This document shows, piece by piece, positions 21,917 to 62,050 of a DNA stretch of 64,000 nucleotides (position 1 is the first letter of the stretch; each line of letters begins with the position of its first letter). The notes beneath the pieces are model-generated. The model did not search any database. It had not been told where the DNA came from and saw only the letters and a list, made by a program, of their open reading frames with translations. The stretch lies in the NCBI GenBank assembly GCA_963842525.1, contig CAWJGT010000009.1:320001-384000 (forward strand), read 5' to 3'. Position numbers and translations under genes: made by a program. This DNA comes from an uncultured Holophagales bacterium (GTDB taxonomy: Bacteria; Acidobacteriota; Thermoanaerobaculia; Multivoradales; UBA5704).

Positions 21917-22188
21917 GCCTCACCCCCTGTCCCCCTCTCCCATCGCCCTTCCACCTCTCGGGAGAGGGGCGCCAGCTGCATGGCCATGGCGGTCTCCCTC
22001 AGGCGTTCTCGAGGATGCGGACGACCGCGGCGGGCTTCAAGGGGAGCCGCCTGCCCCGCCCAGGGTTTACACCCTGGGCTACCGAATGGCGCCCTCCGGG
22101 CTCGGAGTGCCCGGAATTCAAGAGCCCGGAGGGCGGAACTGGGTAGCCCCGGGTGTCAACCCGGGGCGATGGGAGGGAGGGTGAGGCC
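21917..22188. repeat. Composite REP-like region: cctcaccccc...gggagagggg element plus an inverted REP doublet (22059-22166)
   Basis: cccagggtttacaccctgggctacc...cgccctccgggct / agcccggagggcg...ggtagccccgggtgtcaacccgggg; the left part matches 24876-24905. Confidence 0.75.
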
Positions 22189-58772: not shown

Positions 58773-59519
58773 TCAGCCAGGCGTGCCGGATGGGAGCGGG
58801 AGCCAGAGGTGGAGAAGGGAGATGTCTCCGGGACCGTGATTCCGGCCAGGATAGGTCCAGGTTCGCTGGTGGCCGGATTCGTAGATGAGGGGACCTCCGG
58901 AGAAATCGCGAGAGGAGCGGGGAGAATGGCGGACTTGGAGTTCTTCGGTCTCGGATGTGGCACGGCGAAGATAGGGTAGGAGGACGCCGGAGACGGAGAA
59001 GCCTGGATGCGCGTAGGCGAGCAGCATTCCGCAAGGCATCGCCCAGGCGTAGTCTCCGGCGACGAAACGTAGGATGCCGCCTCCGCAATACGCGGTCACC
59101 GGATGGCTTGGACCAACGATCTTGCATTCCACAAAGAGCGCATACAGAGACCGGTCGAGGCCCGGCTGGATGGAGATCAGCCGGAACGTGAGGTCCGGCC
59201 GCTTCTCCAGGGATTGGTTGTTGTAATTGGGGATCTCGGCTCCACGCACGACATCCTGGAAGAGAGAGCCTGTGAAGCCGGAAGGATGGCCGGGTTCCCC
59301 CAGGATGGTGTTGAGGGCAATCTCCAGCCGGGAGGTGATCGCCGGCTCCGGCTCTGCACAGAGGTTTCCTCCGTCCAAGGCCATCTGTTCCAGGATGCAC
59401 TCCCAGGCCGAGCGCAGAGCCTGGATGATGATCTGCTTGCAGACAAGCTCCAGATCACGGAGCGGGTAGGAAACTTCTGGCCTACGGAGGGGAGCCGTGA
59501 GGCGGGGACGCCGGCTCAT
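58773..59519 (-). CDS. Putative PD-(D/E)XK nuclease downstream of the RM-like gene
   Basis: EKRPDLTF...FVECK...GILRFVAGDYA; ATGA overlap with the exon 2 stop. Confidence 0.7.
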   Translation of the reverse strand: MSRRPRLTAPLRRPEVSYPLRDLELVCKQIIIQALRSAWECILEQMALDGGNLCAEPEPAITSRLEIALNTILGEPGHPSGFTGSLFQDVVRGAEIPNYNNQSLEKRPDLTFRLISIQPGLDRSLYALFVECKIVGPSHPVTAYCGGGILRFVAGDYAWAMPCGMLLAYAHPGFSVSGVLLPYLRRATSETEELQVRHSPRSSRDFSGGPLIYESGHQRTWTYPGRNHGPGDISLLHLWLPLPSGTPG

Positions 59520-59594
59520 CGCGACTCCAGGAGACTCGGCAGGTGTTCCTGGATGATCGTGAGGGCGCATAGACGCGCCCGGCTGGGGGTCCAG
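59516..59594 (-). CDS. Exon 2 of the intron-split RM-like gene (WTPSRARLCALTIIQEHLPSLLESR*)
   Basis: In frame with exon 1 after intron removal; its stop overlaps the next start codon. Confidence 0.75.
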
Positions 59595-60408
59595 GCCGAG
59601 TAGGCCGGGGGACCTTACGGCCCCCCAGCCCCTCTAAGAACCGTACGTGCGAGTTTCCCCGCATACGGCTCAAGCACCTCAAAGGCCGATCCGTGACCGA
59701 CCCGGTTGTCCCTACAACTGGACATCCTTTGCGATACTACCATGGCAGGCACCAGCTCTGGACCAGCCAGAGGAGGGGGCGCACAGACGGGTGGCCGAAC
59801 CACCTCCATCTCCTATTTGCCTTCCCCGTTCAAGGTGTTCTCCATACGCTCTCGCAAAGAGGCACCAGTCGGACGTGGGCTCACTTTCGTGCCGGGTGAC
59901 GTTGAAACCCGTATCCGCACCATTACAGGACGGCATTCGCTTCTTCCGACCTCCCAAGCCCGCACCTCCAATGAGATCCCCTTGCGGTTCACCTGCCCTT
60001 GCGGGCGAAGATACGGGGTTACCACGTTCCGCTCCTGAAGTCTGCGCGGGGTTAGGTACCTGCTGTCGACCGGGGAGCCCTATCGACCACGAGGTGGCAC
60101 CGTTAAATCCACCTCCGGCCCCCATACCTTTTGGTTCGAGCTTGTCAGCCACTTTAGCTCGTTCGCGCTTGACGGTCGTTGCACAGGTTCACATGTGTTT
60201 ACCTTACCCGCTACCTAGCCATTGCCCGGCTTGTGGCTGCCAGGAGAGCAGGTCCCTCACGGTTCCCGCCCCGCACGCTTGCGCGTGCCTCTGTACATTG
60301 TCGGAGCCGCTCTTTATTCAGGCCCCTAGGTTCACCCGGTGGTACGGGTGGTTCCGTCTCTGACTGCGAGGGGAACAACTTCATATATAAAGCGACATCG
60401 TGTCGCAG
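59595..60408 (-). mobile_element. ORF-less group II intron, 814 nt
   Basis: Domain V gagccgtatgcggggaaactcgcacgtacggttc; domain VI ending cctactcggc; 5' end CTGCGACACG; EBS1 loop TAACGGT against exon ACCGCTA; removal restores QYRYWTPSR. Confidence 0.92.
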
Positions 60409-61430
60409 TAGCGGTATTGCCGCAGGACGGCGAGCAGCAGGCAGCGCTCGCGAGGCTGGACGAGCACGATCTGGCTGGCCCCCTCCTGATCGGCTTGGTC
60501 GAGAAGGTCGCGCAGGATACTGGCCTTCGGATTCTTCCCGGTTGAACTGTCCAAGCCGAGACAAAGGATCTCCCATGGGGAGTCCGCCGGCCGCTGGAAG
60601 CGGAGGACGCTCAGGCGATGCCCAGCGGTATAGGCGAACGGCTCGAGCTCGCGCTGGAGCCGGGCCGCAAACTCGGTGATCTCGGAGTCCCAAGGCGGAC
60701 GTTGCGCTTCCTGGCGGACCCCGGTATACGGCAGGCCGGTGGCGAGCGTGTCGCGGATGGCCTCCGTATCCCACCGGTTCAGGCTGTAGGCCCGCGCCGC
60801 CCAGTCATCAATCTCGCGCCAGGGCTCCTCACCCGAGAAGAGAGCCTCTGAAAGGGGTTCGATCGCGGAGCGGAGCGGAGCTGTAAGCTTCTCCAGGGGA
60901 CGGAGAGGAAAGCTGTCCACATCCTCCTTGTACAGGGCGTCCCGCTCGACGCCGAACTGACCGCTCGTCAGCAGGGCGTGCCAGAGAAAGAGATCGCTGT
61001 GGATGAGAAGGACGAGATAGCGCGCCAGGGTTTCGGGCTCGCGATGCCCGCAGGCGCTGTAGCCGTAGAAGGATTCGCTATAGGCAAGATTCGAGAGACA
61101 GTAGAACGCCCGACCTTGTGTACGGTCGCGCGGTGTCGATTTTCGGGCAACCACCAGGGGGCCCTCGTAGATGGTCTTCTTGCGCCGGCGGTGTACCGTG
61201 AGCCGGTTGAAGCGCGGCAAGCTTTCGGGATCAATCCTGATTGAGCCCCGGTACCTCGTCGTGAGCTCCGGAAGGTCTTTCAGAAAATCGGCGTCCTGAT
61301 TTCTCCCTTGCACCTGATATCCCGCCCCGGTGCGATCCTCTCCGAAAGATTGCAGAACTGTCGGCCAACGGTGGGCACGGATTTTTTGGAGCACCGAGGC
61401 ATCGAGCGCCGTGTTTCTTGCGGATCTCCC
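60409..61430 (-). pseudogene. C-terminal (target-recognition-like) part of an N6-adenine methyltransferase/type IIG RM-like gene; 5' part missing
   Basis: TALDASVLQKI...IYEGPLVVARKS...YSESFYGYS...LLTSGQFGVERD; no FxGxG or NPP motif upstream; family assignment from recall. Confidence 0.6.
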
Positions 61431-61690
61431 GAACCGGCAATAGCCTCGGCTCTCTTCGGCTCGGCGTATCCAGCCCAGAGTATACGAGGAGCGTGAATCA
61501 GGCGCAAATCTGTGTGGCTGACCGCGATGTCTTTTGAGGCCTTCGGAATGCCGGAACGGTAGAGCTGCTCCGGCTCGGCGGCCAGCCGGACGGCCCGATG
61601 GAGCTCCCGCTCCGCGAAGCCTGCGAGCCGCTCGTCTCCGGGAGCGGCACAAGCCGATTCCTGGAGGCTCCGGCTGTTTTTGTGGGAGAT

Positions 61691-61931
61691 CCGCTCCGCG
61701 GAGCGGACCGTCTGTTCCGCGGAGCGGAGGACCTGGACCGCGGAACGAGTCGTCCGCTCCGTGGCGCGAGCGCCCGCTCCATGGTCTGGGCGATCTGCTC
61801 CATTGGGTGGCCTGCTCCACGGTCTGGGTGGCCTGCTCCACGGAGCGAGTGGGTCAGACCCTGGCGCGGACGGCACGTTCCGCGGCTGGACAGCCCGTTC
61901 CACGGAGCGGCTCGTCCGCTCCGCGGAGCGG
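61691..61931. repeat. Degenerate ~21-bp tandem array, about 12 units
   Basis: CCNNGG-like cores at 61696, 61717, 61738, 61759, 61779, 61800, 61817, 61838, 61859, 61880, 61900, 61921; consensus near ccgctccgcggagcgg. Confidence 0.8.
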
Positions 61932-62050
61932 GAGGCCCAGAATTCGGTGGTGCCGGCTCAGGAGGTGGCCAGGAACAGGCAGGAACAGGTGCGAGAAGGC
62001 CGGTCTTCCGCCTTGCCTTCCCTGCCGGGCTCCGGTACCCTCCCGGCAGC

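Follow-up and report, generated by a model that had tools for sequence, protein, structure and literature searches.

We describe a group II intron that lacks its own protein gene (open reading frame, ORF) in the genome of an uncultured Holophagales bacterium. The element lies on the minus strand of the window, by which we mean the whole 64,000-nt stretch analysed (contig CAWJGT010000009.1, positions 320,001 to 384,000), and is 814 nt long (59595-60408). Overall it is best explained, with a probability of roughly 0.85, as a structurally intact ORF-less intron of the IIB (CL1-like) type, from a lineage that homes to integron attC sites and has the ends C...GC, present here as an off-target copy in a gene remnant.

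Rfam matches, taken at the gathering threshold, cover the core of domain I (RF02012, 77 bits; cut-off 34) and domains V and VI (RF00029 at 59595-59673(-), 65.1 bits; cut-off 40). In the RF00029 alignment, domain V has its AGC triad, bulge and GAAA loop; domain VI comes next and has a GUAA loop, and its bulged A, at 59601, is base seven counting from the 3' end. RNAalifold recovers all six domains from 15 members of the family; of the 186 pairs in that fold, 87 have compensatory changes, and one row of the alignment is degenerate (L058, an internally deleted RT-intron remnant, RT standing for reverse transcriptase). Compared with the family consensus, no catalytic element of the window copy is altered. 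An earlier note, made by reading the letters, had proposed an ORF-less group II intron with domains V and VI, and the Rfam scores agree. It had also called the intron non-autonomous; indeed no RT gene lies inside it, and a Pfam search of its internal frames gave zero matches.

The ends were placed by comparison with sister copies. The bacterium's own genome (G000, 9.95 Mb in a 34-contig draft, 96.4% complete) contains five matches: the window copy; C22:19420-20232, which differs from it by a single base (the window has an extra C at intron nt 436); C13:5285-6083, 87% identical to it; and two truncated copies, a 5' fragment (C22:2560-2761, nt 1-202) and a 3' fragment (C34:603835-604000, nt 648-814). 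The 5' end reads CTGCG in 4/4 copies, and the flanks upstream diverge at once (cgcta|, cgtta|, cgtta|, cgttg|). The 3' end reads CTCGGC in the 4/4 copies having one, with unrelated DNA beyond.

At the window junctions CTG is present on both sides, leaving a 3-nt ambiguity, so the host frame alone would allow four cuts; the sister flanks leave one, CTGCG...CTCGGC. With this cut, the C-terminus of exon 1 (...LLLAVLRQYR+TA) continues into exon 2, whose frame 1 reads (C)WTPSRARLCALTIIQEHLPSLLESR*. The closest homologue of the host protein, L046 (49% identity), runs uninterrupted across the predicted junction as ...LLLAIFREYRYWTPTRARLAALEILHENL..., reading ...LLLAIFREYRYWTPTRARLAALEILHENLGELLGVS at the junction itself (homologue form ...YRYWTPTRARL...); six more distant homologues have ...RRWWT(K/R/I)TRA(R/Q)L... 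there. The predicted intron ends CUGCG...CUCGGC are thereby fixed by sister flanks and host protein. If the intron is excised at TA|C...C|C, the conserved C-terminus would be re-formed, and the predicted spliced stop would overlap the start of the next gene as ATGA at 59519-59516. Both the excision point CGC TA|ctgcg...ctcggc|C TGG and the ATGA coupling had been put forward in the earlier note, and both hold against the sister flanks and the homologues that read across.

These ends depart from the group II consensus at both boundaries. Of GUGYG, positions 2-5 fit and position 1 is C (C1); of the 3' consensus AY, the last base fits Y and the next-to-last is G, written G(n-1). Atypical ends had been noticed before in this single copy, and they prove to be shared across the lineage. 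Sixteen distinct full elements were found in related genomes, L068 796-2377 being left out of the count (unrelated motifs joined, no Rfam match): 13 combine C1 with G(n-1), one of them the RT-encoding L066 (CUGCG...GGC), two have G1 with G(n-1) and one G1 with A(n-1). A pattern scan of metagenome contigs gave 103 loci with first base C (66), G (27) or T (10); where both ends were present (n = 18), the combinations were C+G (12) and G+A (6), and no others. Distant relatives in other phyla have normal ends: betaproteobacterial elements finish ...CCCGAC, as does an ORF-less element in a gammaproteobacterial metagenome-assembled genome, and an intron from an E. coli plasmid, which belongs to the same RT clade, reads GUGCG...GAU.

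The chance that C is a sequencing or assembly error for GUGCG is negligible: nothing was found in favour of it, and against it C occupies the first position in 4/4 own-genome copies, in more than 20 other genome assemblies and in 66/103 metagenome loci. A first C with a next-to-last G is, to judge from these copies, a trait of the sub-lineage and not an error, in line with the earlier note, which favoured C over the usual G of GUGYG as the first intron base. One related genome holds a C1 copy and a G1 copy that share 98.2% identity, although this C1 copy is only ~71% identical to the lineage of the window. The change between G and C at position 1 has therefore taken place at least twice, each time in a background already having the next-to-last G. 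Once the lariat has formed, a contact is predicted between the next-to-last base and the first (Chanfreau & Jacquier 1993, as cited in PMC4238363). C1 with G(n-1) would be a rebuilt version of the G1/A(n-1) boundary contact, acting in the second splicing step.

The class of the intron was approached through its RT-bearing relatives. One of them, L066 (2216 nt), is 85% identical to the window copy over intron nt 1-560 and 96% over nt 734-814. Its RT carries the Pfam domains RVT_N, RVT_1 and GIIM, and scores 535.8 bits with the maturase/RT of PDB 6ME0 (which we take to be the T.el4h ribonucleoprotein), 128.7 bits with LtrA, a IIA RT, and 119.5 bits with the GsI-IIC RT. It is 48-55% identical to plasmid 'ltrA' genes, those of E. 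coli included; plasmid and family RTs related to 6ME0 are presumably CL1. Grouping with CL1-type RTs is thus seen for the relative L066, the window copy having no RT. The domain I architecture of IIB1/CL1 is found in the window copy itself, by its RF02012 match, and in an intron on an E. coli plasmid (RF02012, 133 bits), the RT of which shares 52% identity with that of the family. RT relatives, RF02012, a domain I of ~380 nt and the consensus fold together place the family in IIB (CL1-like), not IIC. An endonuclease domain in the intron-encoded protein (IEP) is stated for CL1 in PMC3552965; in this respect L066 departs from the class, as Pfam finds no endonuclease domain in its RT.

The comparison with L066 also bears on the short frame in domain IV, read in the earlier note as an ORF remnant. 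Its last 19 codons (LEPYAGKLARTVLRGAGGP) do match L066; the remainder has no detectable counterpart, and intron nt 561-733 show zero similarity to that relative. The RT frame of L066 traverses domain V into domain VI, so that the 64-codon frame of the window ends with the same 19 residues. In this autonomous relative (L066:2165-3985(-), genome G009) the frame stops within domain VI, so that protein and ribozyme constraints overlap over ~60 nt. The degenerate member L058:580-1596 (G010) is 1017 nt long, keeps both ends and contains RT remnants, including ...RYADDFI... codons; it is an internally deleted autonomous copy, a separate route to an ORF-less element.

Outside the window, the flanks of the family follow a common pattern. 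An alignment of twenty target sites gives RYYNAAC - stem - variable loop - stem - CGTT(R), in which the stem shows compensatory changes (CAG/CTG, GAG/CTC, CAC/GTG); by its letters, the aligned 5' flank has the anatomy of an integron attC site. Two hand-written finders of AAC...GTT palindromes were too strict or uninformative, and a covariance model built from the 20 sites was used instead. It identified at least 54 sites in the own genome (150 of ~25,000 first-look candidates were scored), many of them in arrays with a spacing of 0.6-1.2 kb. One array (C9:1074623-1077559) lies beside integrase-like matches, and others lie beside three identical 325-aa integrase-like genes. All integrase-like genes fall below the TIGR02249 cut-off of 265, with 146.8 + 93.3 bits in two pieces. 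Integron-like loci are C9:1070920-1077559, C3:356814-364211, C9:1900160-1904453 and C25:535802-539600; the integrase-like match at C9:1070920-1073893 is split by ~2.6 kb.

In 10/11 intron-free intervals between sites, the longest ORF takes up the interval and points the same way as the sites; the family therefore inserts in sense with the cassettes. A target on the attC bottom strand, first read from the asymmetry of arm lengths, was dropped, since the orientation of the cassette ORFs says the opposite. Empty sites read GTTA/GGC, GTTG/GGC and similar. Exon-binding site 1 (EBS1), UAACG(G), in a hairpin that shows the loop AUUUAACGGUG, pairs with CGUUR; these bases vary little or not at all at positions -5 to -1 of the 21/21 sister and relative sites, and the pairing at -5 to -2 holds in 21/21. 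EBS3 was looked for and not identified. The lineage thus homes to integron attC-type hairpins, at the 3' core of the site, entering right after GTTR in the direction of the cassette genes; family members occupy this position, unlike the window copy.

Of the C-first elements, 60/65 come after GTTR, and 33/34 of those with the motif have U in the EBS1 loop 5' of AACGG. G-first elements follow GTT in 22/27 cases and have G at that loop position. A single base change in the loop (U or G before AACGG) thus accounts for the one-base shift of the insertion point. The ten UUGCG-first elements among the 103 metagenome loci (L248, L253, L293, L305, L313, L314, L317, L320, L324 and L330) follow a conserved flank, ..GGTCTGGCT.., and not GTT(R), which makes a third target type.

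Target sites of this kind bring the IIC-attC introns to mind, and a group IIC-attC intron of the S.ma.I2 type that has lost its ORF would share with the family both the attC-type hairpin and, according to Pfam, an RT without endonuclease domain. This identification is very improbable. The family RT scores more than four times higher on the IIB RT than on the GsI-IIC RT; the ~380-nt domain I shares its RF02012 motif with the E. coli plasmid intron from the clade of IIB RTs, and neither this nor the RT fits class C. Domain V carries AGC, where IIC introns have CGC. Finally, insertion is co-oriented with the cassette ORFs (the same 10/11 intervals), whereas IIC-attC introns are described in the bottom strand, opposite to them (PMC3001079).

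The sites also bear on whether both boundaries might be displaced one base to the left, giving an intron R-CUGCG...CUCGG that starts with a purine, and an exon 2 that starts with C. The host frame would be kept in that case too (QYRSWTP), and a C after GTT does occur, as GTTC... in 9/36 empty attC-type sites among the matches listed. We nevertheless consider such a shift improbable, at about one chance in twenty. The base before CUGCG varies (A, A, G) in otherwise 100% identical copies while the C after CUCGG is constant, and the 60/65 metagenome elements show the same pattern. The U of the EBS1 loop pairs with either purine, the favoured cut yields empty sites such as GTTA+GGC, and host-protein homologues keep an aromatic Y or W where the shifted boundary predicts S.

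Further elements in the own genome are associated with such sites. A second group II intron family lies directly 3' of attC-type sites in the same orientation (C3:360452-362487, C11:~179932-181967 and C25:~512331-514366); its three copies have an identical start, GTGCGCCAAGACAA, an RT of ~442-451 aa and a domain V of 40.4 bits. At C3:633537-633594(-), an attC-type site is followed by CTGCG+TCAGAGA..., like the first 5 nt of the intron fused to nt ~45-52, which may be what a deletion has left of a family member. Another palindromic site, RYYYAAC...GTTAGCC (C13:4531-4624), lies some 660 nt downstream of the C13 intron and fits a cassette array there.

The window copy itself lies outside this pattern. 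The covariance model of the target finds no match in the window (best 13.3 bits, E 0.48). Against a profile of the 21 natural sites, which themselves score 7.7-15.9 bits, positions -14 to -1 (GGCAATACCGCTA) obtain 9.6 bits; only 8/100,000 random genome positions reach that score. The window copy is an off-target insertion into a look-alike of an attC arm. EBS1 pairs with intron-binding site 1 (IBS1) at 6/7 positions, the count given in the earlier note for UAACGGU and ACCGCUA; the exception is an A.C mismatch with C at -3. This C is a synonymous third-codon position (CGC), so the site may have been a perfect CCGTTA when it was hit. A metagenome element, L318, also follows ...CGCTA, which indicates that the mismatch at -3 is tolerated at least for insertion. 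The window copy would then be the product of a recent off-target retrotransposition into a mimic of an attC 3' arm, within the last 26 codons of the host gene; we infer both the recency and the route from the single base that separates it from its C22 twin.

Homologues of the host gene are open over ~1000-1135 aa and carry N6_Mtase/Eco57I domains; PADLOC matches them best to a type IIG enzyme. The host gene is the counterpart only of L046 aa 493-849, the last ~40%, and tblastn finds its N-terminal half (~490 codons) nowhere in the own-genome assembly. It is, on this comparison, a 5'-truncated remnant of a type IIG methyltransferase-like gene. Splicing would consequently restore only the tail of a broken gene and the overlap with the 248-aa gene: the 'intact splicing frame' of the earlier note stands in that the frame is kept at the junction, but it leads to no complete protein. 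Upstream of the host fragment, where its methyltransferase half should be (window ~61450-62050, both strands), there are GC-rich repeats with long overlapping ORFs and ...PLRGA.../...RSAER... peptides.

Several observations weigh against the interpretation that we favour. The class was assigned through RT-bearing relatives and one Rfam sub-model, and no EBS2-IBS2 pairing was found: target positions -7 to -13 are semi-conserved, with no convincing complementary EBS2 loop. At the window site, splicing could be lowered by the mismatch in the middle of EBS1-IBS1, by a first exon 2 base of C (mostly G at natural sites) and by the private 1-nt insertion in domain II. In a host gene reduced to a remnant, selection for splicing has no obvious basis. 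The link between C1 and G(n-1) is confounded by descent, there being essentially two or three clades, and elements with G1 and G(n-1) exist, so the covariation is not strict. Among public reads no run of this organism was found, and four soil sequencing runs (one DNA, three RNA) give contigs over the intron interior only, at 85-99% identity; none lies over the exons or shows joints, and none bridges position 60408 in the listed pieces. Finally, the assembly in which no cognate RT was seen is a 34-contig draft, 96.4% complete.

Many of the same points also fit a dead relic: a real family member that is not spliced here, interrupts the tail of an already broken gene and will decay. We give this somewhat less than an even chance. 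The missing ~490 N-terminal codons, the mismatch at -3 together with the non-consensus first base of exon 2, the insertion in domain II, the lack of a cognate maturase in the assembly and the truncated copies in the same genome (C22 nt 1-202, C34 nt 648-814) all speak for it. On the other side, the single-base difference from the C22 copy, which occupies a natural site, makes the window copy young; no catalytic element has been altered relative to the family consensus; and L318 in metagenomes shows the mismatch tolerated at insertion.

A structurally intact ORF-less intron, as we read the window copy, would need a maturase/RT supplied from elsewhere. The own genome contains 24 domain V matches (17 above cut-off) and 15 maturase-domain matches; none of its ~15 RTs is from the intron family, and RF02012 matches only the four ORF-less copies. 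In a tblastn search of this genome with the family RT, the best identity is 30-35%, and no cognate RT is found; a related IEP in the same genome, as used to recognise ORF-less introns mobilised in trans, is therefore not seen in the draft assembly. Five further genomes with full ORF-less copies contain a full cognate RT in 0/5 cases: a 90-aa fragment (86% identity) occurs in one of them, and an RT of 41% identity in one. Two genomes, G009 and G278, have both the ORF-less and the RT-bearing form. All checked genomes are drafts, so a cognate RT may have been missed. The 3' fragment at C34:603835-604000 was considered as the end of an RT-bearing parent and rejected, as a cyclase fragment and unrelated frames lie upstream.

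The earlier note had proposed mobilisation in trans and pointed to sister copies and an RT parent as its check. That the intron has moved is borne out by copies 100% and 87% identical at unrelated sites, and there are four further matches in the own genome; an RT-encoding parent was not found there, nor was a full cognate RT in any of the five other genomes.

The family occurs in 12/41 close relatives and, at E <= 1e-20, in 37/300 genomes of the order, including 19/41 in one genus; the family-bearing loci L142, L143 and L174 are Acidobacteriota. A pattern scan of genome contigs gave 121 loci, 23 of which are similar to the intron beyond the 16-nt seed; the others, palindromes that arise by chance in GC-rich DNA, were left out of the count. 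The lineage is common in soil Acidobacteriota-type genomes.

These observations may be joined in a broader proposal, tentative and on balance rather unlikely as a whole. The boundary contact would have been rebuilt as C1+G(n-1), possibly as a Watson-Crick pair, in steps (3' A to G first, then 5' G to C) and at least twice. The ~810-nt ORF-less elements would form a long-lived population, similar to miniature inverted-repeat transposable elements (MITE-like), persisting across genera without a cognate RT and spread by heterologous RTs or by riding integron cassettes, 3 nt inside the cassette boundary.

The nearest published element, compared by description, is UHB.I2, a group IIB1 intron with a CL1-type IEP from a soda-lake integron array (Sonbol & Siam 2021, PMC7923331). 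It is described as a single RT-encoding metagenomic intron directly after an attC site, in cassette orientation, with the ends UUGCG...GU (PMC7923331). Common to both are an IIB-type ribozyme, a CL1-like RT without endonuclease domain, insertion in cassette orientation at attC and ends that depart from GUGYG...AY. Unlike UHB.I2, the family ends in CUGCG...GC, is mostly ORF-less (~810 nt) and is present in the 37 genomes of the order counted above; its window copy lies outside any attC site. The IIC-attC introns S.ma.I2, E.c.I7 and Kl.pn.I1, as described in PMC3001079, resemble the family in homing to attC hairpins with an RT that lacks an endonuclease domain, and differ in being inserted in the bottom strand, antisense to the cassettes, in encoding an ORF and in belonging to another ribozyme and RT class.

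In having lost the RT gene and kept the ribozyme, the family resembles the trans-served ORF-less introns of cyanobacteria and C.te.I1 of Clostridium tetani (PMC4424553); like the lone C.te.I1, it has no related IEP gene visible in its genome. Bacterial ORF-less introns are called rare in that article, and nearly always accompanied by a related IEP (PMC4424553). The present family differs from this picture: its ORF-less form is the common one across genera, and a full cognate RT is found in 0/6 draft genomes (G000 and five others). RmInt1, another mobile intron of bacteria, has a 3' end of CC and thus likewise a next-to-last base other than A; according to PMC4238363 it retains G1, whereas in the window family the first base is changed too.

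Few bases of group II introns are as strongly conserved as G1 and the next-to-last A, and by analogy the same holds for spliceosomal introns. Here the two have changed together in a natural lineage that is mobile and counts dozens of independent insertions, which makes it a test case for the contact between intron ends. A boundary search based on GUGYG would miss such elements, which split attC sites and occasionally genes. In the literature searched, which did not extend to the curated intron database, we found no prior C-first (CUGCG) group II intron and no report of an ORF-less group II intron of such kind in Acidobacteria. As far as this search reaches, four aspects are new: the combination C1+G(n-1), which arose more than once; an EBS1 change by which insertion moves one base; the frequent lack of a cognate RT; and the in-gene, frame-preserving off-target copy.

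Table 1. Positions in the window of the intron, its parts and the adjoining coding sequence.
Feature	Position	Strand	Basis
ORF-less group II intron, 5'-CUGCG...CUCGGC-3'	59595..60408	-	Rfam, divergence of sister flanks, consensus fold
5' end CUGCG (C replaces usual G1)	60404..60408	-	own-genome, genome and metagenome copies
IBS1 in exon 1, ACCGCUA, C not U at -3	60409..60415	-	profile of 21 natural sites
Domain I, approximate, intron nt 7-386	60023..60402	-	RNAalifold projection
Domain I core, group-II-D1D4-7	60218..60351	-	RF02012, 77 bits
EBS1 hairpin	60091..60115, loop 60098-60108, EBS1 UAACGG 60100-60105	-	sequence reading
Domain II, approximate	59958..60017	-	RNAalifold projection; private 1-nt insertion at intron nt 436 against the C22 twin
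Domain III, approximate	59867..59951	-	RNAalifold projection
Domain IV, ~190 nt, without RT gene	59673..59866	-	RNAalifold; comparison with relative
Domain V, AGC triad, GAAA loop	59638..59671	-	RF00029; compensatory stem changes in related genome
Domain VI, GUAA loop, bulged A 59601	59598..59634	-	RF00029 and fold
3' end GGC, next-to-last G replaces A	59595..59597	-	sister, genome and metagenome copies
Exon 1: putative 3' fragment of type IIG methyltransferase-like gene, L046 aa 493-827	60409..61418	-	tblastn, 47.8% identity
Exon 2: last 25 codons and stop	59516..59594	-	host frame
Downstream gene, 248 aa, no family match; start overlaps predicted spliced stop (ATGA)	58773..59519	-	ORF and family search

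Elsewhere in the window, an Acido-Lenti-1 RNA matches at 22059-22102 (+), with 40.7 bits against a cut-off of 37.

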